The notes below the pieces were generated by a model. The model searched no databases. It had not been told where the DNA came from and saw only the letters and a list, made by a program, of their open reading frames with translations. A program made the position numbers and the translations under genes. Positions 2,677 to 63,670 of a DNA stretch of 64,000 nucleotides are shown piece after piece (position 1 is the stretch's first letter; each line of letters begins with the position of its first letter). The stretch is from positions 18,228,001 to 18,292,000 of the forward strand of contig OZ024752.1 of assembly GCA_964016885.1 (NCBI GenBank), written 5' to 3'. This DNA comes from Eledone cirrhosa. Its lineage: Eukaryota.

Positions 2677-2990
2677 TGCTAGACAAGTACTTCTTTTCTT
2701 TGCCCACTTATTCCTGAGAGGGTCCTGGAGGCAGAGTCCTCAAACATTCCCTCCTCCAACTGATCTAGCTGGATCCCCAAGTGTGACCAGCCAAGCTCAT
2801 GGATGTTATCCAGCCATCTTGCTCGGGGTCTACCTCTAGGTCTCCTGCCAGTTGGTTTCACTCATAAAATCTGTCCAGAGCTTCTGTCCTGAGACATTCT
2901 AACCACATGCCTATAGTATTGGAGCTGTGGTCTCTCAATTCAGAGAAGCAGCAGCTCTACCTGGAATGACTCTGATCTCCAAGATACGTA
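2677..2990 (-). mobile_element. Degenerate RTE LINE 3' fragment (distinct family)
   Basis: Translation PTGRRPRGRPRARWLDNI is a typical RTE ORF C-terminus. Confidence 0.75.
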
Positions 2991-3286
2991 CTTAGAAAGT
3001 TATAAACTATTAGTTTTTAGCTTGCATTTCAGGGTTAGTTGAAAAAGCTTGTTTTTTATATAAATTGTTTATGCAAACTATGAGCTATATTGAGCTGTAA
3101 CCTATTTTTCTTTATATATGGAAACTAGTGAGAAAAGATAAGCTATAAACTGTTCAAATGAATTCATACTTTGCGTGTTTGGCCTGACAATATGGCAGGA
3201 AATAAAGTTTAAGATTTACTTAAAAGGTTTAATGATGTGCAAAAAATATGCTTTCATTTTTATATTGTCTATTTTCTTTTCTTTAG

Positions 3287-5529: not shown

Positions 5530-6902
5530 TGTTATACTTTGGGAGGGTCATGTTGCCAATAAGAAACACACGCACCAGTTGCTTTCACTTCAATTTAATT
5601 TATTAAATATTTATAAATTTACAAATTTATAAATTTCTGGTTGGTTGGTTGGTTCCACAACCAGATAGTTGTTTATATATATATAGTCATAGTTCTTTCG
5701 TCACACACTTTGTGACCTCTTCAGTGACTGGGGATTTCTTTCTTCGTTTCTGTGCGTTTCCTTTCTTCTATCCTACGCCATTTTGTTTGTGTGTGGGTTG
5801 CGTGCTCAGTTTGTGCATGCGCCACATCCGGGTGTCTGTGTGTGTTTGTGTTCATTTTTCTATTTTTTCTATTTATATTTTTTTATTTGTTTGTTTATTT
5901 ATTTATTTATTGTTGGTTGGTTGTTTGTTCTATGTGTGTGTGTGTTTTCAATTGTAGTTGTTTGTTCGATGTGTGTGTGTGTTTTCATTTTGTCCTTAAT
6001 TGTAAGTTGTGATGTTGCTGTTCCACTCATATTTTCTATTTAATTTAATTTTGGTTTTAATTCTTTTATGCTTACTGCCTCTGTAATTTGCCTAAACATT
6101 GCGTCTTTCTTGTGTGTGGATTTTATTTTTATTTCTATGCTCTCTAATTTACCCCTGTGTTCTATCTTAGCATGTTGGTAGAGCACAGATGATTCTTTAT
6201 TATCTTGGAGGTCTCGCCAGTGTTCATTTATTCGTTCCCCTATACTACGAGCTGTCTCACCTATGTACACTACATTTTTGTTTCTACATTGTCCTTCAGT
6301 ACATCTGATGCTATATACTACATTTCTAGTTTTACAGTTAATATGGGGGCTTATTTTACAGGTTATACATTTCTTATCTATACATGAGGGTCTTTGGAAC
6401 GGGTATGTCTTGCTAATAAGTGTTTTTACGGAGGTACCAGGTCTTTCTACTATCTTAATATTGAGATTATGTTTCTTTAGGGCCCTTCTAAATTTGTAGG
6501 CTAGTTCGCCTCTTAGGGGTTGTATTGATGAACATTACACTCTGGTATTTATTGCTATCATACCATGAGTTTATTCTATTGGCCTTGTTCTTAGTTCTTT
6601 CTATTCTATTCCAAAATTTGCTCCTATACAAGGGGCAGGTCCCCATTTATGTCATTATTTACCATTTTTTCCCATTTGGTTCTGGCTCCTTTATACACTC
6701 TGATTCTATCTCTCTGATTGTAGCCAGAGAACTGCATACGGTGGATGAAGTGTTGTATGTGTCTCTCTAGTTCTTCGGGGTTGCACATGCGGGACACATT
6801 TCTCATCACCCGTACCAAATCCGCAATCAGTATGTTGATTTTGGTATGGTCCGAAATGGCCGAGTTTCGGTGGATCAGATGTTTGGAAGTCATGGGTTTG
6901 GC
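5530..6902 (-). mobile_element. Penelope-like element, 5'-truncated (RT thumb, Cys-rich linker, GIY-YIG endonuclease)
   Basis: Minus translation ...CIDKKCITC...NCKTRNVVYSIRC...VVYIGETARSIGERINEH...RQITEAVSIKELKPKLN; frameshifted; hammerhead in the 3' UTR. Confidence 0.85.
5685..5729 (-). ncRNA. Minimal type I hammerhead ribozyme motif
   Basis: Minus: AGTCA-CTGAAGA-G-GTCACA(aagtg)TGTGAC-GAAA-GAAC-TA-TGACT; stems I and II pair, minimal stem III. Confidence 0.8.
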
Positions 6903-10420
<3,518 letters not shown>

Positions 10421-11989: not shown

Positions 11990-13790
11990 ATAATAATAAA
12001 ATTGAAGACTAAAATCCAAAGAGGGCTCGATAAGGAAAATATATATCAGATATATAAGAACCGAAGAGCAAATATTTATTAAAATAACAGATTAAAGTTT
12101 AAGCAAAGAATCGCTGCTTTCACCCTTAACGGGATCTTCTGAAACTAACAAAGTCAATCTGTAAACACAGAACTGGATATTTCAAAAAACGTTGCAACCG
12201 GAGGAAGACAGGAAGACGATACCTTGGTTCATGGTGACGTTCGCTGGCAAAGAACGGGAAAAAACGAATAATACCTCATTAATAGGAGCGGTGAAAAACA
12301 TTTACGCGCAAAGACAGAACCACGTTTATGGTATAAAAGAGGTCGTAGACTAATGTTCTCTAAGTGGTGCATAGAGACGTTCTCTGGCAATGAATGAAAA
12401 AACAAAGATAATAAGTTATATGTGGAGCGTGGAGAACAATAGCACGCAAAGACAAAACCACGTAAATGGTATAGCAGAAGTTGTAGACTAAAATTCTAAC
12501 TAGGAGACCGTATGAATCTCCGCTACAGAGTTAAGAACAAAGTAAATAAATACAATACAAAAGTAATAGAAACAAATAAATACATACACGCAAACAGATA
12601 CGTACATACACTAGCATACGCAAAACCTTACCAAACAAAACCACGCACATATAAATATGTGTATGTGTGTACGCTTGTGTACAAATAAATAAATAATTAT
12701 ATAAACGTATATAAGTAAATAAATACGTATATAACAAGCGCACACACATACCTACAAATAAATACACGAAGGTTCGGAGACGTAAGTCAACTGAAACAAG
12801 AAGTACACATATACACACACCCACCATACGTACGAACCTGCATACTCACGCAAACGCAAAACTCCCATATACACATAACCAAACCCTAAATACCAGAATA
12901 TGTAAAAATTACGTACGAGAAGGTATACATATCTTCACAAAACATGCGGGTAATATATACTTACCTATGCAAATAAGTAAAGGAATAAACAAAACATATA
13001 CTTAGCTCCCACATCAAGACGTAAAATATCCACGTATAGATCATGCTATCCGTTAGGGTATAACGTGGGGCTGTAATACAGGAAAGTTTTGTGCAATTTA
13101 TGTTTACAAGCCGAAATTGCCTCAGATTTTTTGTTTAAGATGTGGTCTGTGGCGTAGAGTATTTCCAGGGCCTCAGTGGCGCAGAGGTCACATGGTCTTT
13201 TATTTCTGTTATATGATCTAGCCCTAGCTAGGATCTCCCAGTGTAACTTATATTGGGTGTGGTTGTCTTTTAGACTCCAGATATAAGCTGAAAGTGACGT
13301 CATATTCCTTCTTAGAGGGTAACGAAAAGAATGGGTATGCATGTAAAGACGCTGCTTGAAACTATTGGCGGTTAACCCTATGTAGGCCCTACGGGACGTG
13401 GGTGTTACAACCTTACATTTGTAGACAATGTTACTAGAGAGGCATTTCCCGGATAGGGGACAATCAGCCCGATTCCTACAATTACAGTTAGTACTAACTA
13501 CAGGGTTGCACGTGTTCCTACGGCTAGGTCGTTTAGCTAAATTTGAAGCTGTGATGTTATGTGCAAGGTTAGGAGTCGTAGAGTAAGAAATTTTAATAGT
13601 ATTTCTATTAAAAATTTTACTATATTTATGTGTAGGGGGGAAATGCTTCGTAATAAGGGAAAGAAAGATCTTAGCTAATGGTGTGGCCACCTCCATATTA
13701 TATGGTGGGTTAAACCAACAAATGCGACGGGATCTATTTCTTCTAGGTCTATTCCCGTACTCTGTATATGCTACCTTATATATTGTATAT
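11990..13790 (-). mobile_element. Penelope-like element (Naiad-like GIY-YIG), 5'-truncated, with long 3' UTR
   Basis: WFNPPYN...KHFP...KIFNRNTIKISYS...CNCR...CPL...NIVYKC...AYIGLT...CDLC...CKH; hammerhead-like motif at the 3' end; clade assignment from recalled motifs. Confidence 0.85.
12096..12146 (-). ncRNA. Variant type I hammerhead motif (CAGAAGA core)
   Basis: Minus: AGTTT-CAGAAGA-T-CCC(gttaa)GGG-T-GAA-AGCA(gcgattctt)TGCT-T-AAACT. Confidence 0.7.
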
Positions 13791-13853: not shown

Positions 13854-14518
13854 TGTCGGATTTGTTTATCGTAAATTCGTGAGCTGATTTTCCGATACTC
13901 GATTATTCTATTATATTTAGCTCTAGACATAGCTATTGACCAGTTAACTTTATTGTTCATTTTTTGTCGATTCTATTGAATGATGAATAGCTCCTGTTTA
14001 TTTTAACATGTCTATCGAGCACTCTTATTCGATATGTGTTTTCCACATTACCGATAATTTTTCGCGAATATAGAGGTTGTCTCCCTTGCTGAACTCCATG
14101 TGCGTTCTAGCTAAAGATAACTTCTTTATTCGTTGGACATAACCCGTTGATAAAGTTGTTCCGGTCCATTCGCTCCCTAGAAGTCTTATATATTTTTATG
14201 TGGGCTGATAGGGAGCGGATTAAGGAATTGCAGAAACCCAAGAAGCTAGATTTACCACCTTTCTAGTGGGTCCGGGTAAGTTTTTTACACTCATATAGAT
14301 TATTGATTTATTGATATTTTATTTGAGTGACCCGAATCTTCCTGGTCGTTCTTTTTCGGCTGCATGGGTGATTTTAGGCATAATCTTTGTGTGTTGGTAT
14401 TTTAACGATAGTTATAGCTCTGATTTATCTGAATCATTGAGCCCTCTGCCACTCATGTCGGATTTGTTTATCGTAAATTCGTGAGCTGATTTTCCGATAC
14501 TCGATTATTCTATTATAT
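13854..14518. repeat. 602-bp unit with a 63-bp terminal direct repeat, embedded in TA arrays
   Basis: 13854-13916 = 14456-14518. Confidence 0.8.
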
Positions 14519-14519
14519 A

Positions 14520-14551
<32 letters not shown>

Positions 14552-40067: not shown

Positions 40068-42465
40068 TTATAATTGACCACATTATCATAACATTTGATA
40101 CTTTATAATTGACCACAATATCATAACATTTGATACTTTATAATTGATCACAATATCACAACATTTGATACTTTATAATTGACCACATTATCATAACATT
40201 TGATACTTTATAATTGACCACAATATCATAACATTTGATACTTTATAATTGACCACAATATCATAACATTTGATACTTTATAATTGATCACAATATCACA
40301 ACATTTGATACTTTATAATTGACCACATTATCATAACATTTGATACTTTATAATTGACCACAATATCATAACATTTGATACTTTATAATTGACCACAATA
40401 TCATAACATTTGATACTTTATAATTGATCACAATATCACAACATTTGATACTTTATAATTGACCACATTATCATAACATTTGATACTTTATAATTGACCA
40501 CAATATCATAACATTTGATACTTTATAATTGACCACAATATCATAACATTTGATACTTTATAATTGATCACAATATCATAACATTTGATACTTTATAATT
40601 GATCACAATATCACAACATTTGATACTTTATAATTGACCACAATATCATAACATTTGATACTTTATAATTGACCACAATATCGTAACATTTGATACTTTA
40701 TAATTGACCACAATATCGTAACATTTGATACTTTATAATTGACCACAATATCGTAACATTTGATACTTTATAATTGACCACAATATCGTAACATTTGATA
40801 CTTTATAATTGACCACAATATCATAACATTTGATACTTTATAATTGACCACAATATCATAACATTTGATACTTTATAATTGACCACAATATCATAACATT
40901 TGATACTTTATAATTGACCACAATATCATAACATTTTATACATTATAATTGACCACAATATCATAACATTTGATACTTTATAATTGACCACAATATCGTA
41001 ACATTTGATACTTTATAATTGACCACAATATCGTAACATTTGATACTTTATAATTGACCACAATATCATAACATTTTATACTTTATAATTGACTACAATA
41101 TCATAACATTTGATACTTTATACTTGACCACAATATCATAACATTTGATACTTTATAATTGACCACAATATCGTAACATTTGATACTTTATAATTGACCA
41201 CAATATCGTAACATTTGATACTTTATAATTGACCACAATATCATAACATTTTATACTTTATAATTGACTACAATATCATAACATTTGATACTTTATACTT
41301 GACCACAATATCATAACATGTTATACTTTATAATTGACCACAATATCATAACATTTGATACTTTATAATTGACCACAATATCATAACATTTGATACTTTA
41401 TACTTGACCACAATATCATAACATTTTATACTTTATAATTGACCACAATATCATAACATTTGATTCTTTATAATTGACCACAATATCATAACATTTGATA
41501 CTTTATAATTGACCACAATATCATAACATTTTATACTTTACACTTGACCACAATATCATAACATTTGATACTTTATAATTGACCACAATATCATAACATT
41601 TGATACTTTATAATTGACCACAATATCATAACATTTGATACTTTATACTTGACCACAATATCATAACATTTGATACTTTATAATTGACCACAATATCATA
41701 ACATTTGATACTTTATAATTGACCACAATATCATAACATTTGATACTTTACACTTGACCACAATATCATAACATTTTATGCTTTATAATTGACCACAATA
41801 TCATAACATTTGATACTTTATACTTGACCATAATATCATAACATTTTATACTTTATAATTGATCACAATATCATAACATTTTATACTTTATAATTGCCCA
41901 CAATATCATAACATTTGATACTTTATAATTGACCACAATATCATAACATTTTATACTTTATAATTGACCCCAATATCATAACATTTGATATTTTATAATT
42001 GACCACAATATCATAACATTTTATACTTTATAATTGACCACAATATCATAACATTTTATACTTTATAATTGACCACAATATCATAACATTTTATACTTTA
42101 TAATTGACCACAATATCATAACATTTTATACTTTACACTTGACCACAATATCATAACATTTTATACTTTATAATTGACCACAATATCATAACCTTTTATA
42201 CTTTATAATTGACCACAATATCATAACATTTGATACTTTATAATTGACCACGATATCATAACATTTGATACTTTATAATTGACCACAATATCATTACATT
42301 TTATACTTTATAATTGACCCCAATATCAGAACATTTGATATTTTATAATTGACCACAATATCATAACATTTTATACTTTATAATTGACCACAATATCATA
42401 ACATTTTATACTTTATAATTGACCACAATATCATAACATTTTATACTTTATAATTGACCACAATA
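40068..42465. repeat. 35-bp minisatellite (~68 copies)
   Basis: Unit TTATAATTGACCACAATATCATAACATTTGATACT. Confidence 0.95.
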
Positions 42466-43547
42466 AGGGTTAATTGACTTTCCCCTTCCTCCAGATTGTT
42501 AGCCTTTTGCTTAAATCAGAAGCCATTAATCTATAATCTTCTCTCTTAAACAAAATGTGTATATATATATATATATATATAAACAATAAATGGTGGAGAA
42601 GGCAAAAAAGTTTAAATCCAAACTTTAAATCTTACACAGTGTTTCATCTATACAATAACGAGTAACAGTTCACCCATATATTTGTGCGTGTACGCATGCA
42701 TATACATTGTTGTTAATGGCATTAGTATAGAATCTTCATATCTCTTCTTTTTATATATATATATATATATATATCTATATATATGTGTGTGTAGCAGTTA
42801 AATGTTATTCTTTGATGGATGTTTGATGAAAAGAATAATACCAGGATTGTGATGTTGACAATGTTCATTTTACAATAACAATATGTGACAGAATTTATCG
42901 CTACATTAACTTGCTGGCTAGCTACTTCGAGCTAGCGTGCATGCATGTATCAATACGATGATACAATATAAGTGGTTCAACAGGAAGACGCAAGAATAGA
43001 TAAAACACAGATGTAAACAGTATAATCGAACCTGAGTGTATGTGTGTATATTCTTAGAATACGTTATTCGTCTCAAGGACTGCTACTTCATGTCTGGCTG
43101 TAGTCTGTGTCCGAGAAGGTGAAAGCCAGTAAAGCCAAGAGATAGAAAGATAGTGTGAAAAGTCTGCTAGATTGTTAACCTTAACACGGACTGCTTGCTT
43201 CGGTCTCTGCTGTTAGATTTTCCAAGTCCTTGTATTTATAATAACCCTATAGTTAGAAGAATGTGTATATGGGTTGATTTATGGGCAGCCATCTGTGTTT
43301 CCTCTGTCTACAAGCTGGGGTCACAGGTCAAGTGGTATGTAAGTTTATCATACTTATTTCTTGACAGGGCGATCGTGGGAAACTCCCGATAACGGGTGGT
43401 CTCAGAAGTGAGGAACCTCAGATTCGGTTTTGAATCTTCACCGGTAAAGCATAGGAGTATTCCGTTATATATGTAATATATATTCCCTGAGTTCTGTGAT
43501 AATGCTATAAATACTCCTAATCTCTTTCTTTCTGTGTTTTCTTATAG

Positions 43548-43683: not shown

Positions 43684-43853
43684 GTAGGTTTACTGATCGG
43701 TTTGTATTTTAGTATAAACCTTTTCATTGATAGAACTTCTCTATTTCTCATGCACATCTATTTTATTCATCTTCTCTCTTACTCTTCTCTCTCCATCATC
43801 ATCATCTTCATCACCTCCACTTTTCTATACAAAGACCAAAATCTGAAACTCAT

Positions 43854-43904
43854 AGTTTCAGATGATCCCACTTAAGGTGAAAGCAGAAATTTTGAGCTTA
43901 AACT
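43854..43904 (+). ncRNA. Variant type I hammerhead motif (CAGATGA core)
   Basis: AGTTT-CAGATGA-T-CC(cacttaa)GG-T-GAA-AGC(agaaattttga)GCT-T-AAACT; homologous to 12096-12146. Confidence 0.6.
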
Positions 43905-44547: not shown

Positions 44548-47114
44548 ACTGGGGTACATGGTGGGCACGGTTACGGCTCAAGAAATGAAGGAGTTAGACT
44601 TCTTGAATTTTGTGATGCAGGTGCACTGACTGTTTGCAACACTAACTTCCAGGAATCTGCCAACCACCTAATAACCTACAAATCAGGCCAGCACATAAGC
44701 CAGATTGACTTCTTACTAGTTAGGCAGCGGGACAGGCAGATAGTGTCAAATACCAAGGCATACCCTAGGGAAGAATGTACCCCATGGCATAGGTTAGTCG
44801 TTGGTGATATCTCAGTGGGCAAGAGACGGAGTGGGACATGCGGGAGGATTTGGAGAAGAAGGGTCTGGAAGCTGAAAGACCTTTCACTAAAATAAAAATT
44901 TAGGAGGGCCCTTCAGAATGTGAATGGTGAAAAAGAAGACGATTTAGAGTTGTATGACATAGATGATGGCTGGAGTTTCTTGCGTGACAGCTTGCTGCGG
45001 GCTGCTGATGAAACTTGTGGCTGGGGAGGAGCTTCAGCCAGACAGAGAGTGACCTGGTGGTGGAATAGCACAGTAGATAGGGCCATTAGAGACAAAGGAC
45101 TAACATGTAATGCTTGGAAAAAGGGTGGGTGCAGAGAAGGATATACAGCCGCTAAGAGAGAAGCTAGTCGTCAGGTGTACTGAGCACGCAGGGAGGCTGA
45201 GAGTAGGAGGTTTGCCAATGTTCTGCGATGGGAGGATCGGAGACGTGCGGTGTTCCACATTGCAAGGCAGTGTGTCAGTGCAAATCAGGATGTTGTTGGA
45301 GATAAATGTGTCTGGAATGATGCTGGTGTACTTGGTGTCACGAATGATCAGAAAAAGGAGGCCTGGAAATGTCATTATGAGAGACTGATGAATGTGGAGA
45401 ACGAATGGGAGAGAGAAATTACCCTCAGTAGATCCAACAGAAGGACCAGCTATTGAGATTGACGAATATAGGGTCCAAGAGGCGATTAAGGAAATGAAAA
45501 ATGGTAAGGCTACTGGACTGTTGGGGATAGTTGCTGGGATGCTGGGGGCATCGGGGGACGTAGGCACTAAACTGGTTGCATGCATCATCAATCAGGCTAT
45601 ATATGGTGGTGTCATACCCAAAGACTGGTGCAGCAGTATTCTCATAAATTGCTACAAAGGTAAAGGGGATGCTCTGGAGAGGAGCAAATATAGGGGCATA
45701 AAACTGATGGATCAGGTCATGAAAGTGGCAGAAAGGATATTAGAGCAATTAATTAGAGAAAGGGTCAAACTAGATGAGGTGCAGTTTGGTTTTGTGCCTG
45801 GGAAAAGTACAACAGATACCCTCTTGTTGGTGAGACAATTGCAAGAGAGGTTCTTGGAGAAGAATAAGCCATTATACTTAGCTTTTGTTGACCTAGAGAA
45901 GGTCTTTGATAGGGTACCCCAATCTGTCATCTGGTGGTCCCTAAGGAAACTAGGTGTTGAGGAATGACTTTTGAGGACACTGCAAACTTTGTACAGAGGT
46001 GCTGTCAGTAAAGTGAGAGTAGGAATGGAGTTTAGTGAGGAGTTCCAGATGCAGGTAGGAGTACCTCAGGGTTCGGTTCTCAGCCCGCTCTTGTTCATTA
46101 TAGTCCTCCAAGCCATAACAGAGGAGTTTAAGACTGGCTACCCATGGGAACTTCTCTATGCTGACTATCTAGTTCTTATAGCAGAATCAGTAGAGGAGTT
46201 AGAGAATAAATTCTGGCTATGGAAACAGCAGTTGGAAGCAAGAGGACTGAGAGTGAACCTAGCTAAGACAAAAGTGTTGATGAGTAGAAAAGGGGACAAA
46301 ACTCTGATTCCGTCAGGGAAATGGCCATGTTTGATACACAGAAAGGGAACTGGCATAAATTCTATAAAATGTACACAATGTAGATCTTGGGTACACAAGA
46401 GATGAAGTGGGATAGCAGGCAAACTAACAGGTAGGGAGAAATACGTATACAGTAGAAGTCGCATTGATAGACACATTTTTCAAATGCAGGTGGGTGCTAT
46501 AGAAGTGGTTGATAGCTTTCGGTACCTAGGTGATCAGATTAGCATGGGAGTGGGGGGGGGGTCCGAGGCCATAGTATCTAGAATAAGGACGGGTTGGAAG
46601 AAGTTTAGGGAGCTGCTTCCTCTGCTGATGAAGAAGGCTTTCTCCCTGCGTACGAAAGGCCGGTTATATGCTGCCTGTGTGAGGAGCCTGATGCTGTATG
46701 GTAGTGAGACATGGGCAGCAACTGCAAAGGATATGCGACGACTGGAGAGAAATGAGGCAAGCATGCTCCGTTGGATGTGCAGTGAACGACCCAGCATGAA
46801 TGTGTTGAGAGAGAAACTGTGTCTGAGAAGGATAGAATGTAGTGTGCGAGAGAGGAGACTGCGGTGGTATGGACATGTGATGCACATGGAGGATGACTGC
46901 TGGGTGAAGAAGTGCCAAGAAATGCCAGTTGAAGGAAGACGTGGTGAGGTAGACCACGAAAAACTTGGGCGGAGTTGGTGAGAGCAGACCACAGATCGCT
47001 GAAGCTCACGGAGGAGATGACAAAGGACCGTGACAAGTGGAGAGATGCTGTGCTGAATAGGACCCGTCCCACCCTTGCAAGCAGGGAAGAGCGGACGTAA
47101 AATGATGATGATGA
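44548..47114 (+). mobile_element. Degenerate RTE family C LINE (EN C-half + RT)
   Basis: GVHGGHGYGSRNEGVRLLEF...QIDFLL; QFGF, AFVDLEK, GVPQGSVLSP, LYAD; many stops; (GAT)n tail. Confidence 0.93.
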
Positions 47115-49035: not shown

Positions 49036-52015
49036 TTAAAAGTTAAACAAGGTTCAATGAATAAATCAAAGAATGAGTTTTACAATAGATAGAAAGCACT
49101 CAACAGATATGCTAAGAAAGGCAGAGTATAAAAATAAAATAGAATATATAGACAATAATAATCCAAATCTTAATCCTGATAAAAATAATAGTAATATGAC
49201 TGGCATATATAAACGAAATTTTAAAAATTATAATTCAAACACCTGTACTGTGAATAAATCGGGGAAAAGAACCAGAACTAAATCAGTTATATGGTCCTCC
49301 CCACCTGCTTCTGTAGCAGTAAGAACACCACTAGCTAATCTATTCTTTAAGGCTTTAGATAATTCCTTCCCTAGTCAACATAAATACTGTTCCATATTTA
49401 ATAGACACACAATTAAGCTTTCTTATTCTACAACTATGAATATGACCCTAAACATCGCTAAACTAAATAGTAAAATTCTAAACCAAAATCAGCATAATGC
49501 TGTTAATAATAGTGTTAATATAAATAATAATAAATCAAAATATAATTGTAGAAATAAACCAGATTGCCCTCTGCAAAATAATTGTCTGGATAGAAATTTG
49601 GTGTATAAATGCACCGTAAAAACAAATAACAACACATACAACTACATAGGGGCAACTTCTTCGACATTTAAATCGAGATTTGCGAATCACAAATGCTCAT
49701 TTTCGAATTTTAATAGGAAGTCTTTGACTTCTTTATCACAACTTATATGGTCATTAAAAGACAAAAATTTAAAATACTCGATTTTTTGGACGAAGCTTTG
49801 TAATAGTAAAATATACTCGAACTCGTCTATATCAACTAACTGCAACCTTTGCACAAAGGAGACCCTATTAATAATTACTAATTTTGAAAACTTAATTAAC
49901 AAAAAAAGTGAATTATTCTCAAACTGCCTTCATAAAGCTTTGTCTACATTCCAAGCCTCGCAAAAAGTCAGGAAAAAACACTAAACAAACAGGCTTTAAT
50001 TTTTGACATCTCTTATCAACTGTTGGACCTAAAACGTTATAACAGTTTATAAAACTTTAATAATACTTTATTTTCTAATCATTTATGATAGAATTAATGT
50101 TAGAATGAAGGATCCTGTTTAGGTATATAAACATATTATTTGGTAACTTGTTCACTTGATAAATATGCACACCTTAGGATTATTTTAGATATTTATAATT
50201 TAGATTCAGATCTTTATTTATCTGTCTCTGTTTTAAATATATAATTTGGATATTTAACTTGTAAGATTACCAGTTATAATTGAACCGTAAATCATTCATG
50301 CATTTATATATCTTACTCATTTTGGGTATGTTCTGGGGACTCAGAAAGTTAGATTTGCACTTATATATTTTTTATATATATCTAGGTATAAATATAATAA
50401 ACCATACTAGTCGACAAATATTGGTCTCTCTCTCTCCACTGAACTGGAGGTAAAACTACAATTATAGCATTACTAATAATGATTATAAGTATTTATTTAT
50501 TAAATGTATATCGTTTCATTAATACCTATAATAATATCTCTATATAGTTGTACAAATATGTTTATCTAGTGTAATAACATACTCGTAGTTACATTTATAA
50601 ATAATTTAGATACTCAAATGACTCTCTATTGTTATAAGTGTTAGTTATTCCCTGGATGTTCGAAATTATATAATGATTATTACTTAATTTAATATAATTT
50701 AATTTATTTTAATTAAATTTAGATTACCTTCGGCTTTTTCAAGTCTTTAGCTCCTCTTTCTATCACATTCGCTGGACATTTTAGAAGTATCTTTTGTCTA
50801 CTATATATTAAAACATTTAAACATTTTAAACTATATTTTTAATATTGGGCATTTTTAAGTTTCGCAAACAATTCATTATTTTTCACTTTTTATTTTTATA
50901 TTTATTTTGTATCTAGCTCTTATCTTTAGGACTCATGTAGTTTTGACTTATATATTTAAGGTATATATCAACTAAATCCTTTTACAATAATTGATATAAA
51001 ACATTAATTTTTAACAATATTTTTTAACAATATTTTCAGTAACTTATTTACTATATTGTATTATTGTATTATGTTATGTATATTTGAAAAATATCACCTT
51101 AAGGCTTTAGACAATATAATCCTTGTATATTTTTTGATTAACACATATATGTAATTTAAAATTCAGACTTCTTTAAGTTTAATTATAAGGCCTGTTGATC
51201 CTTTAGACACTCAAATTGTTAATCATAAATTCTTTAATAATTATTACTGTAATTATTTTATAAATTGTATTATATAAACTGTTGTCAATATTATAAATAA
51301 TTTTGGTAAAGTTTACCTTCATGAGGTTATAAAAACATTATATTTTCTTTCTCGTGTTTGTAAATCCTTTAAATTTGATTTCATAAAATTTGAATTTTAG
51401 AAATTAAACTTGATAGTATACTATAATATTAATACGGATACCTATTAACTTTTAAAACCTAAAATATTATTAATTACTCTGAACTAACTTAAATTAAATA
51501 TTTTGAATATTAACAGTCAACCAAATAAGTTTAGATATATATTGTATATATGGATAATTGTCTATAAACTTGAACATAAATTATTCCCCTTTGTCTCTCT
51601 CTCTCTTTAATCATCTCTCTTTTAACTTTCATGGCACCTACTAACTATATTATCCCGTCAGCTGTTTCTTCCTCTATGCTTTCCTTTCTTTCCTCTTTCT
51701 TCAGTAATTAAAATTTTTTTAACTGTTATATTGATGCCAAGTATTTTTTAAGCTGTCTCACACGCATCCTCTCTATTGTATGTATTATATATTTTTCTCA
51801 TGTTCTCAATATTAAGGTATATAAATATTGAGTTTTGTCATATATTACTCACTACCATGACTGAATCTTAACCATCTAGTATGTCAGGGTATGTCATGCA
51901 TCATCTTATTTTATCTGATGAGGACGTACTGTTGAACTTAACTCAGTACCACCTCTGAAATATGTATAATAAAATATACTTGATCACAAGAATATCTATT
52001 TTGTTAATATTTTGA
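49036..52015 (+). mobile_element. Penelope-like element (Naiad-like GIY-YIG ORF 49073-49984) with ~2-kb AT-rich 3' UTR
   Basis: WSSPP...IFNRHTIKLSYS...NCRNKPDCPL...NLVYKC...NYIGAT...CNLC...CLH; hammerhead near the 3' end. Confidence 0.85.
51907..51976 (+). ncRNA. Minimal type I hammerhead ribozyme motif
   Basis: TATTTTAT-CTGATGA-GGAcGTACTG(loop)CAGTACcaccTCT-GAA-AT(ATGT)AT-A-ATAAAATA. Confidence 0.8.
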
Positions 52016-52445
52016 ATTAATATCTCTCTCTCTCTGATAAATGTGGAAAATTAGGGCATTTTGCAAGATCCCGTTGATCAAAATACGATTGTAAAGAGAG
52101 AGAGAGAGAGAGACAGACGTGATCAATGTGAAGATCAACAGAATGAGATGGTTGGGTCATGTGTTGAGGAAGGATGAAAGTGACTAGGTTGTGAGGAGTG
52201 ATGGAAATAAAAGTGAAAGGAAGTAGAGGAAGAGAGAGACCAAGAAAAACATAGTTTAACATGGTGGAGGAGGAAATGAAAGCTATGGTTCATGGGGATG
52301 CAGATGATAGGACAAATTAGAGAAGTTTGTTATGAGACCCATAAGGTTTTAGCAGTTGGGGTTGTGGGGTGAGCTAAAACAGTTGTTGTTGTTTACATAT
52401 TGCCCTCTATTTTAAACATTTGAAATGAAATATATTATATTGTAG

Positions 52446-60469: not shown

Positions 60470-63400
60470 ATCCATATCCAGTTTTGGTCTTTAGGGTGCT
60501 GCAGTTGTCCTGGACTCTGAGGTAGGCAACACCAGGCAATGTCTCACAGCCGCTCTCCATGAATTTCTGTCTAGAGTATCAACATCGGCCAAGTTCCATT
60601 TATATAAATCCCTCTTCACGCACTCCAACCACGCCTTCCTTGGTCTGCCGCGATCTCTAGTGCCAGGGATTGTCAAGTGAGATGTAGAGTTGATGCATGA
60701 CGTGGCTTGCTGTACATGTCCATACCAACGAAGGACAGCGGTGATCTCATCCACCTAATTTGGTGCCACAGATCCACCTAATCATGGTACGATCATTTCG
60801 CCTGAGCTGTTGCAAATCTGAGGCATTTGGAGCCCATGTCTCACCACCATGAAGCATGGCGGAGCCAACATAAGCAGAAAACTCTTTGCCACAAACTTTG
60901 AAAGAGATGAGGCAACAGCTTTCTGAATTTGCCCCATGCAACACAGCAGCGAGAAGCAACAGCATGTTCACAACCTCCTCCAGCACAGATCATGTCATCC
61001 AGGTAGCAGAAAGTGCATTCCATATCGAGTAATGTGCCATCCACATCTCCATGTGTATCAGATTGACCATCCACTGGGCGACACCTACGACAGACGTACT
61101 TTGGATCAGCAACTAGTTTCCCAGTGATACCATTGCACCTCTTATGGACCCATAGCTTGTATTGAGAGAGCATTCGATGGAGTTTGCGTCCACACCACTG
61201 CGACAGACAGCACAGGGGAATTCACCAGAATCTTTGAGAAGGCCAAGATCAATACCAGAGATCAGGAACTTTGTCGTCTTCATATTGACTCGAAGACCTT
61301 TTCTTTCCATGTCAGTTTTCCATGATTACAGTTTGGAGATACACCCCCCCAAGCGAGTCGGCAATGACAGCATACAGCAGCTCCCATGGGACGCCAGTGT
61401 GGAACTCCCATGACAGTGCCTCCAGCACCAGGATGAAGAGGAGTGGACTGAGCACTGATAGACTCCATCTCCCACACCAAATTCTTTGCTATAATGTCCA
61501 TTGACACGAACACGACTCCTGGCGTTTGTGTACATGCCCTGGATGTTACGGACAGCCCACTCCTAGACTTCTCATTGCCAACCAGAGTACTTTCCTTGGC
61601 ACACAGCTTTCTCAAAATCGACAAGTACAAAGAAGAGAGGTTTCTTGGCAGCAATGTACTTCTCTTGAAGTTGGGCGGCAATGAAAATGGCGTCTGTGGT
61701 GCCTCTGCCAGGCACAAAGCTGAATTACATTTCATTGATGTTCACCATCTTGTGAATGTAGGAATCTAACACACACTCAAGCAGCTTCATTACTTGATCG
61801 GTCACGAGAGTTGCCACGCTCGAGGGTCTCCTCTTACCTTTGTAAAGGTACCTTCACCGAAGACTGATTCTGCCAGCTGCCTCACCAACTCAACTTCCTC
61901 CTCACCAGCTGCTTTAAGCATTTCAGCAATGATGCCAGAAGGACCTGCAGCCTTGCCACACTTCATCTTGCTAAGAGCCTTGTGGATCAACTCAGGTGAC
62001 ACACTGGGAGGGAGACCAGGAACTGGAGCCAATTGAGGTCCCTTGGCCAATCAAACTCAACATTTAAGTGCTTTGAATAATGCTCCAGCTATGCCTTCAT
62101 CTTCTCTTCATCACTGAGAGACAACTCACCAGCATCATTTTTGACACACTTTTCGCCAACAACATCCTGGTTAGTGTGGTCCATTTGTTTGGCAAGCTGG
62201 AAGGGGAGATGTCAGCAAACACCTCTTTCTCGGCATCAGACTTGGCCAGTCAGATAACATGCTTGGCAGTTCACTTGGCTTCCAATGTAGGCAGTTTTTG
62301 CTTCCTTAGCCTCTACCACTTTACCTGCTTTCATAAGTGCCTTGTATGCTTTGAACCGTGATCGCTTTTCTTTAATTGCACCTTCGACCCTCTGATTCCA
62401 CCACCAAGTTTCTTTTCTCCACTGGTGGTTCTTGGACATGCCACGTACCTCAGTTGCTGCATCCAGAAGGGATTGTGTCGTTTCCGGCAGGAGAACCAGT
62501 CAATTTAATCTTGAAGGTGTCATGAAATAGGTCAGCCACAGCTGGTGTCTTCAACTTCCAAGTAAATGAACATTGAAGTCACAAACCACTAGTTGGTGCT
62601 GTTGGATGCATTTCTCAGGCGGGATGACTTTGACGTTGCTGACTGCTTTCCTGAAACTCTTTCGGAACAAGATGTAATCTATCTGGGTCCTATGGTTGCC
62701 GGAACTGAAAGTGACGAGATATGAGTCTCTTTTCTTGAACAATGTGTTACCAACAAGGAGGTCATTGGCAAAAGCAAATTCTAGAATTCTCTCTCCTTCT
62801 GCGTTATGGGCCCCGAAGCTGTACCCGCCATGCACATCCTTGTATGCACCATTTACAGCACCAACATGACCATTCCAATCACCCAACACAAAGCGGGTTT
62901 CAGAGACTTTGATGACAGTGCTTAGCAACTGGTCAAAGAAGCACTGTTTTGCAGCGTCAGAGAGACCAGACTGAGGAGCGTAAATAGAAAGGAAGGTGAA
63001 AACAACCGTGCCAATGACTAGCTTTAGCAGCAGGATCCTGTTTGAGATGTGCTGGACTTCAAAGACCTTATCCACCCAGTGCTCAGCTAACAGCATGTCT
63101 GCACCACCTTGGCCTTCCTTGTTTCCACACCAGTAAAACTTGTAGCGTGAGTTCCTGCCTTTTATGAAGCGAGTTTGGTTAGGTGTCACACCACCAGCCC
63201 ATCTGTGCTCTTGTATACCACAAAGCTCAACTTTCCATCTCGATAATGTCTCCACCACTTTGCTATCTTGCTTCTTGACTGAGCCAACATTCCATGTGGC
63301 CACCCTGAACTTGGTTGTGTGCTTGCTTGATTCGCCTTGATGGTCTGACCCTGCCACCCGCGAGGAGGCCAAGCCGGAGATGCTACCGGCACTTCTAGTA

Positions 63401-63670
63401 TGACTGCTGGCACCACCTATCACAGATACAGTAGAAAGACTTGCCATAATACTGAAGCAGGGTTTTTAATGGGGTGGCTGCTCTGCCTATCCCACAACTC
63501 AGAACTTTCAGCATCTGAGACTCTGCCGTTCCCACACTCCGGCTGTGTGCCTGCACGTTGTCCCTGCAAAAGGGTTATCTGTCCAGCCACAGTGGCAACT
63601 TTGCTAGAACACCAGTCAGTCGATGACTGTCACATGAAGCCTACTGCCAGCCAGGTTGAAGCAGCTCGTA
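60470..63670 (-). mobile_element. Degenerate near full-length RTE family D LINE
   Basis: APE ORF 62551-63447 (VATWNV, GIQEHRW, SIYAPQ, GDWNGH, TQIDYIL); fragmented RT downstream. Confidence 0.9.

Follow-up and report, generated by a model that had tools for sequence, protein, structure and literature searches.

A hammerhead-shaped motif with A4 as its family norm in a Penelope-like element of Eledone cirrhosa

On the minus strand of a 64,000-nt stretch of the Eledone cirrhosa genome (contig OZ024752.1, positions 18,228,001 to 18,292,000; "the window" below means this whole stretch), a short motif can be drawn as a type I hammerhead whose core has A in place of U4. The locus raises the question of whether such a core is a decayed ribozyme or the norm of the family that carries it, and of whether it is likely to cut. 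The original prediction, made from the letters of the window, had described the stems, the CAGAAGA core, a U-U mismatch and a CUU site, and both the sequence and the coordinates that it gave were right (Table 1). Against the hammerhead consensus, the core letters of the motif at 12146-12096 differ in the change of U4 to A, and every other position matches. The A15.1-U16.1 pair and an NUH site (CUU) are both present, and the pair at 10.1-11.1, which is usually G-C, is absent and replaced by U-U.

Table 1. Positions in the window of the host element, the two motifs and their parts.
Feature	Position	Strand	Basis or remark
Hydra-clade Penelope-like element copy, 5'-truncated, (TA)n-flanked	11991..13780	-	collinear, 92-97%, with most of 29 other endonuclease-anchored loci
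C-terminal ORF part: CxCx5C linker and GIY-YIG-type endonuclease with CxxC, CxH	13046..13780	-	similarity to P0004
Tail and preferred 3' end (12072); in tandem copies the tail opens the 5' UTR that leads to the ATG	11991..12072	-	fragment ends, tandem junctions
GT-AG intron, 721 nt, in 3' UTR/pLTR	12964-12244	-	exact exon junction in genome; ends 98 nt upstream of hammerhead
Hammerhead-shaped motif, type I, young subfamily	12096..12146	-	sequence, family counts, per-position table
Stem I, 5 bp	12146-12142/12100-12096	-	sequence
Core C3 A4 G5 A6 A7 G8 A9	12141-12135 (A4 at 12140)	-	sequence
U10.1; U11.1	12134; 12122	-	U-U mismatch at base of stem II
Stem II CCC/GGG, loop of 5 nt	between U10.1 and U11.1	-	sequence
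G12 A13 A14, then stem III AGCA/UGCU with 9-nt loop, then U17 and stem I		-	sequence
CUU site; predicted cut 12101/12100	12103-12101	-	sequence
A15.1-U16.1 pair	12118/12102	-	sequence and per-position table
Second motif: decayed older-subfamily member (N7 = U, CUUA-type loop 2)	43854..43904	+	no ORF beside
Fold-back junction immediately upstream of copy 2: short inverted stub plus 3-nt spacer	43841..43853	+	sequence

By its motifs and domain order, the host is a Hydra-clade Penelope-like element (PLE). The ORF piece at 13780-13046 found no Pfam match on its own and is 43% identical to residues 476-711 of a 717-aa reverse transcriptase (RT) plus endonuclease protein, P0004; another locus (L017) matches residues 202-702 of P0004 in one stretch, with the RT upstream and the endonuclease C-terminal. 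The endonuclease region has a CNCRNRADC linker, CDLC and CKH, and one C alone lies between the IVY and YIG motifs, so there is no CCHH finger. RT motifs at three loci (L023, L285, L290) read RWR, with R for the K of RWK, and DKT; longer copies have YRDD, and one stop-broken copy has SYRDD. The ends of the element adjoin (TA)n in the window and at many other loci. Craig et al. (2021, PMC8557442) list as diagnostic of the Hydra clade RWK and DKT, a CxCx5C linker, CxxC and CxH around a conserved E and N, the lack of a CCHH finger, and (TA)n targets. The first label, Naiad-like, is wrong, given the C-terminal endonuclease and the motifs of the Hydra clade: Naiads have an N-terminal endonuclease and DKA, whereas the A4 family has the RT followed by a C-terminal endonuclease, and DKT, although the two share (TA)n insertion, tandem and inverted structure, and a very high copy number (PMC8557442). 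The label may have come from a separate repeat inserted in the (TA)n tract at 13854-14520, which has a 66-nt direct repeat at its ends and 40 scored relatives at 94-100%; among 19 other loci fetched, no Hydra-type RT or endonuclease match belonged to this repeat. An initial assignment of the element to the Neptune clade was dropped, and the family is not Hydra-1_Obim, from which its motif and protein start differ.

At four loci (L290, L317, L318, L034), tandem junctions show the 3' UTR followed by the motif, the preferred end, a 5' UTR stretch of about 130 nt and then the ATG. Some 900 nt separate the endonuclease stop from the motif, and some 160 nt the motif from the ATG of the following unit; the unit length is about 3.2 kb as the sum of its parts, and copies read straight through the motif. 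By place and shape this is a hammerhead-like motif near the 3' end, as in the Hydra clade, but one that A4 makes non-canonical.

The window holds a second such motif at 43854-43904 (+), and the statement that it carries the same two deviations and the same stem I was confirmed: stem I, A4 and U-U are identical to copy 1. Overall the two are 79.7% identical, across 74 nt only. It had been said to differ in its loops alone; it corresponds, rather, to the old-subfamily copies at L295, L297 and L300 minus one stem II pair and one stem III pair. Judged from these letters, copy 2 is the decayed remnant of an older-subfamily member, belongs to the same lineage as copy 1 and is not a second family, and it does not serve as the independent support for which it had been taken. 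A structure-filtered scan of the 64-kb window returned five candidates, namely the two A4 motifs, canonical motifs at 51915 (+) and 5724 (-), and one weak match. The canonical CUGAUGA hammerhead at 51915 belongs to a second Hydra-type element (49061-52020, +), whose 3' UTR runs to about 2 kb, and the small one at 5724 lies downstream of a GIY-YIG remnant (6040-6534, -; Pfam PF01541). A degraded hammerhead-like stretch at about 43095-43140 (+), with a short CC/GG stem followed by UGAAAGC, stands 750 nt before copy 2, and a tandem array with a unit of about 30 bp occupies about 40090-42460. Endonuclease and RT fragments at 8719-10392, 17773-21087, 45392-46981 and 62551-63465 are presumably of RTE-type LINEs.

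The organism's own genome (3.0 Gb) was searched with patterns having a CAG or a CTG core, and with reversed patterns as controls. We found 23,596 CAGANGA matches, 109 CUGANGA matches and none for the reversed controls, so the motif is not a product of chance. Samples anchored in the flanks, which avoid selecting on the core letters, gave the same picture. The young type had 16,407 matches, and among 100 listed we read A4 in 100, U10.1 in 97 and U11.1 in 99; a script check of 30 of these listed copies found A4 in all 30. The older type had 60 matches, with A in 57, C in two, a deletion in one and U in none (30 of them checked by script). The family consensus is thus CAGANGA and not CUGANGA, and the view that the variant core is a family trait was borne out: A4 is the state of both the young and the old subfamilies, a norm and not decay. 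Old copies lie 7.5-12.5% from their own subfamily majority and young copies 1.6%, which argues that A4 persisted through several waves. In contigs of runs X1 and X4-X6, none of the differences listed falls at 12140, 12134 or 12122; organisms B and C differ so little from the window that they were not counted as independent species. A metagenome pattern scan gave 118 stretches in 4 of 64 parts, none of them like the A4 family on inspection, and these were taken as chance.

A looser CTG pattern yielded 1,118 further CUGANGA matches. Inspection of 20 showed that in 19 the motif adjoins its own inverted copy, with the centre falling exactly on position 4 of the near-palindrome TTC-W-GAA in 16 cases; these further matches are mostly fold-back junctions rather than a canonical lineage. 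A canonical (U4) sub-lineage inside the family was accordingly rejected, since CUGANGA matches are few, the old copies have no U4, and the matches to the looser pattern are mostly fold-back junctions. About 1,000 such head-to-head junctions lie at or near core position 4 (the equivalent of 12140 in the window; L371-L390), roughly four times the ends per base estimated near the predicted cut, a ratio that is rough as the patterns differ. A 3-bp micro-palindrome may drive them.

How much of this motif is new? The U-U mismatch is a described natural variant (Perreault 2011, PMC3088659, section 8), is found in the axolotl HHR_Amex2 (PMC7229834), and occurs in 14 of the 26 Hydra-clade rows published in File S2 of Craig et al. 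2021 (PMC8557442), none of which departs from U4. Natural core variants in PMC3088659 comprise U3-A8, A6C, U15.1-A16.1, U10.1-U11.1 and the viroid U4C, all of which were assayed there; U4A is not named in the text of section 8 or in the 11 supplementary text files. More widely, no description of U4A was found in the literature searched, which excluded Lunse et al. (2017), cited in the review PMC6765202 for small hammerhead variants in PLEs, as well as paper figures, so that absence from print is not established. The claim of an undescribed variant therefore holds for U4A, which is the only distinctive feature and at this position probably undescribed, and fails for U-U; apart from U4A this is a known motif in a known clade.

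Comparison with published systems places the motif more closely. With the Hydra-clade hammerheads (closest Hydra-1_aJap, Hydra-2_aJap and Penelope-16_HM) it shares type I topology, a place 3' of the ORF, a short stem I, a stem III of 3-4 bp, and (TA)n; the 26 rows all have a GUH site and a loop III of 1-3 nt in addition to U4, whereas the A4 family has CUU and a 9-nt loop III (PMC8557442). As in the variants of Perreault 2011, one conserved core base is changed in an otherwise complete motif with U-U at the base of stem II (PMC3088659). The minimal PLE hammerheads of Cervera and De la Pena 2014 have in common with it the pLTR location, the tandem arrangement and a presumed role in processing precursor RNA, but have U4 in all 56 motifs listed, little or no helix III and mostly G10.1-C11.1 (PMC4209133). 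The own genome also holds a family that combines U4 and U-U with a CC/GG stem II; it has 2,828 exact matches, and all 100 of those listed carry U4. Sixteen multi-copy hammerhead-like clusters were recovered from 1.0 Mb of fetched loci: one is the A4 family, 12 are all or mostly U4, one is split between C4 and U4, one is a sporadic A4 pair and one is an implausible pair. An apparent second A4 family (L328, L344) proved sporadic, with U4 in 100 of 100 listed among 582 matches. Because the other hammerhead families are mostly U4, A4 is probably a derived state of its lineage. A sister Hydra family (L421, about 2955-3070; endonuclease 50% identical) appears by eye to combine U4 with a U3-A8 core, its stem II being long and its loop III 9 nt.

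The variant had also been expected to escape standard descriptors. A descriptor with a fixed CUGANGA misses it by construction; an Rfam miss due to A4 was not demonstrated. Local Rfam scans reported no hammerhead for the A4 motif, for a natural U4 copy (L032) or for the canonical Hydra motif at 51915, so the miss is not attributable to A4, and a whole-window scan, swamped by microsatellite matches, had no hammerhead among the 150 of 266 matches listed.

Constraint was measured from the majority bases of 30 young against 30 pooled old copies, with search anchors excluded from the flanks and one CpG-type difference set aside. None of the 36 stem and core positions differ, compared with 3 of the 15 positions in N7 and the loops (p = 0.022) and 47 of 233 flank positions (p = 0.0008). 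N7 is the sole core position at which the subfamily majorities differ, and is U in 8 of the 30 old copies. At the rate of change seen in the flanks, the 12 unpaired core positions alone would remain unchanged with p ~0.07, so that most of the signal comes from the helices. Stem covariation, whose absence the original prediction had named beforehand as counting against it, was not found: there are no double changes at the 12 stem pairs in the 60 copies. A four-subfamily comparison (0/36, 9/17, 36/85) was set aside in favour of the young-versus-pooled-old one because it is partly circular, the old groups having been labelled by loop 2.

That the minus strand "folds as" a hammerhead was too strong a wording. 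All 12 pairs of the three helices can form and are unchanged between the subfamily majorities, but they are not the predicted minimum-energy fold of the 51-nt motif, which is a different structure at -8.8 kcal/mol compared with -4.8 kcal/mol for the hammerhead. The three helices occur together in about 1% of the predicted ensemble (z ~0 against shuffles), and restoring U4 or G10.1-C11.1 in silico raises this share to 3-5% only; nearest-neighbour models leave out core tertiary contacts. The isolated motif prefers a UUUCA/UGAAA hairpin that buries G12 and is as conserved between the subfamilies as the hammerhead. Since UUUCA pairs with UGAAA, A4 is joined to U11.1, the other odd base, with p = 0.70 in the isolated 51 nt, 0.39 with 20 nt of flank, and <0.01 with 40 or 80 nt. 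Two copies are predicted to pair with each other via stem III.

G8 and G12 are catalytic in known hammerheads, and CUU is a slow cleavage site. On balance we lean towards reading the motif as the pseudo-LTR hammerhead of a Hydra-clade PLE whose lineage fixed U4 to A, probably slowed, still cutting and under selection. On this reading G8, G12 and the three helices would still be under selection, and A4, U-U, the CUU site and the competing hairpin would together make cleavage slow. Slow cutting at both pLTRs, perhaps aided by dimer formation or proteins, could then release some unit-length, possibly circular, RNA, and would leave much of the template uncut or re-ligated across the site. Position and shape match the published Hydra hammerheads (PMC8557442), PLE hammerheads are slow in vitro (PMC4209133), and tolerance has a precedent: a viroid with the natural U4C change stays infectious, and cleavage is higher with U-U than with other mispairs (PMC3088659). 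Counting against cutting, a full pairwise scan of a type III hammerhead found all single and double mutants of the CUGA turn low except a C3-G8 swap (PMC9901934); the missing compensatory change, the small ensemble share, and the departure of loop III and CUU from the 26 Hydra rows also weigh against this reading.

The ends of copies bear on a possible, if doubtful, alternative, that cutting has been lost, the helices or the competing hairpin being kept as a structural signal (for RT/endonuclease or RNA stability) and A4 being a tolerated loss. Among 65 fragments, 32 have their 3' end at the 12072 site and 18 at the 11991 site, both downstream of the predicted cut, which suggests that templates span the site uncut or re-ligated. 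At the cut itself we counted 582 matches with non-U at position 17 and 511 at 16.1, of which 14/30 and 15/30 lacked an upstream motif; a canonical U4 control family gave 185 versus 155, with 12/30 lacking it in each case. Copies have no preferential start at the cut site in either family, and 2 of 65 5' ends in the cleaner set fall at the core start (an earlier 5'-end histogram was set aside as biased by junction-selected loci). Reading through the site, as most copies do, would fit a motif that is dead, but since the canonical U4 family equally lacks ends there, neither read-through nor the footprint discriminates. Loss of cutting would also agree with the low, unrescued U4 mutants (PMC9901934), with the predicted dominance of the hairpin in the isolated motif, and with the spread of Naiads without canonical hammerheads (PMC8557442). 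A weak point against it (p ~0.3) is that G5, A6, G8, A9 and U10.1 are unpaired in the hairpin and yet unchanged, while N7 changed.

The long fixation of A4 in a highly successful family, and an unusually long loop III whose UUCU is complementary to A4-G5-A6-A7, might instead point to full activity, A4 being compensated by a new contact such as one with loop III or U11.1. We consider this unlikely: loop III has no covariation with N7 (12110 is U in 30/30 old copies, N7 in 8), 12108 and 12107 vary among old copies, U-U occurs without A4 in many families, and the type III scan found no pairwise rescue (PMC9901934). Efficient cutting with A4, whether through the long loop III or through a switch between the A4-U11.1 hairpin and the active fold, seems similarly improbable; if true, it would mean a regulated or re-wired core, beyond the reach of mutational scans, in more than 20,000 copies.

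A further explanation for A4 is selection for a splice acceptor (UUUCAG) that would serve the pLTR intron. At and just before the core there are indeed a pyrimidine tract and AG, and a Penelope intron of D. virilis ends at helix I (PMC4209133). The exact spliced junction, from the 12965 donor to the 12244 acceptor, has 209 genomic matches, the joint at the donor having first been seen in run X3, and these copies indicate that spliced RNA was retrotransposed. No genomic copy joins this donor, the only one considered, to either AG of the motif, and 29 of 30 junction loci inspected continue through the unspliced hammerhead, which makes such selection very improbable. The sequence around the acceptor is duplicated as an imperfect direct repeat of 135 nt (12497-12365 versus 12359-12225).

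The role of the hammerhead in PLEs has been called unclear (Craig et al., PMC8557442). The A4 family offers a natural test case, being present in more than 20,000 copies despite a core change that mutagenesis predicts to be harmful, while the genome's other families keep U4. Either outcome would be useful but incremental, the motif standing one letter apart from a known class. Should the A4 motif prove to cut, the consensus and the search descriptors for hammerheads ought to admit A4; should it not, a very successful PLE can do without cleavage.
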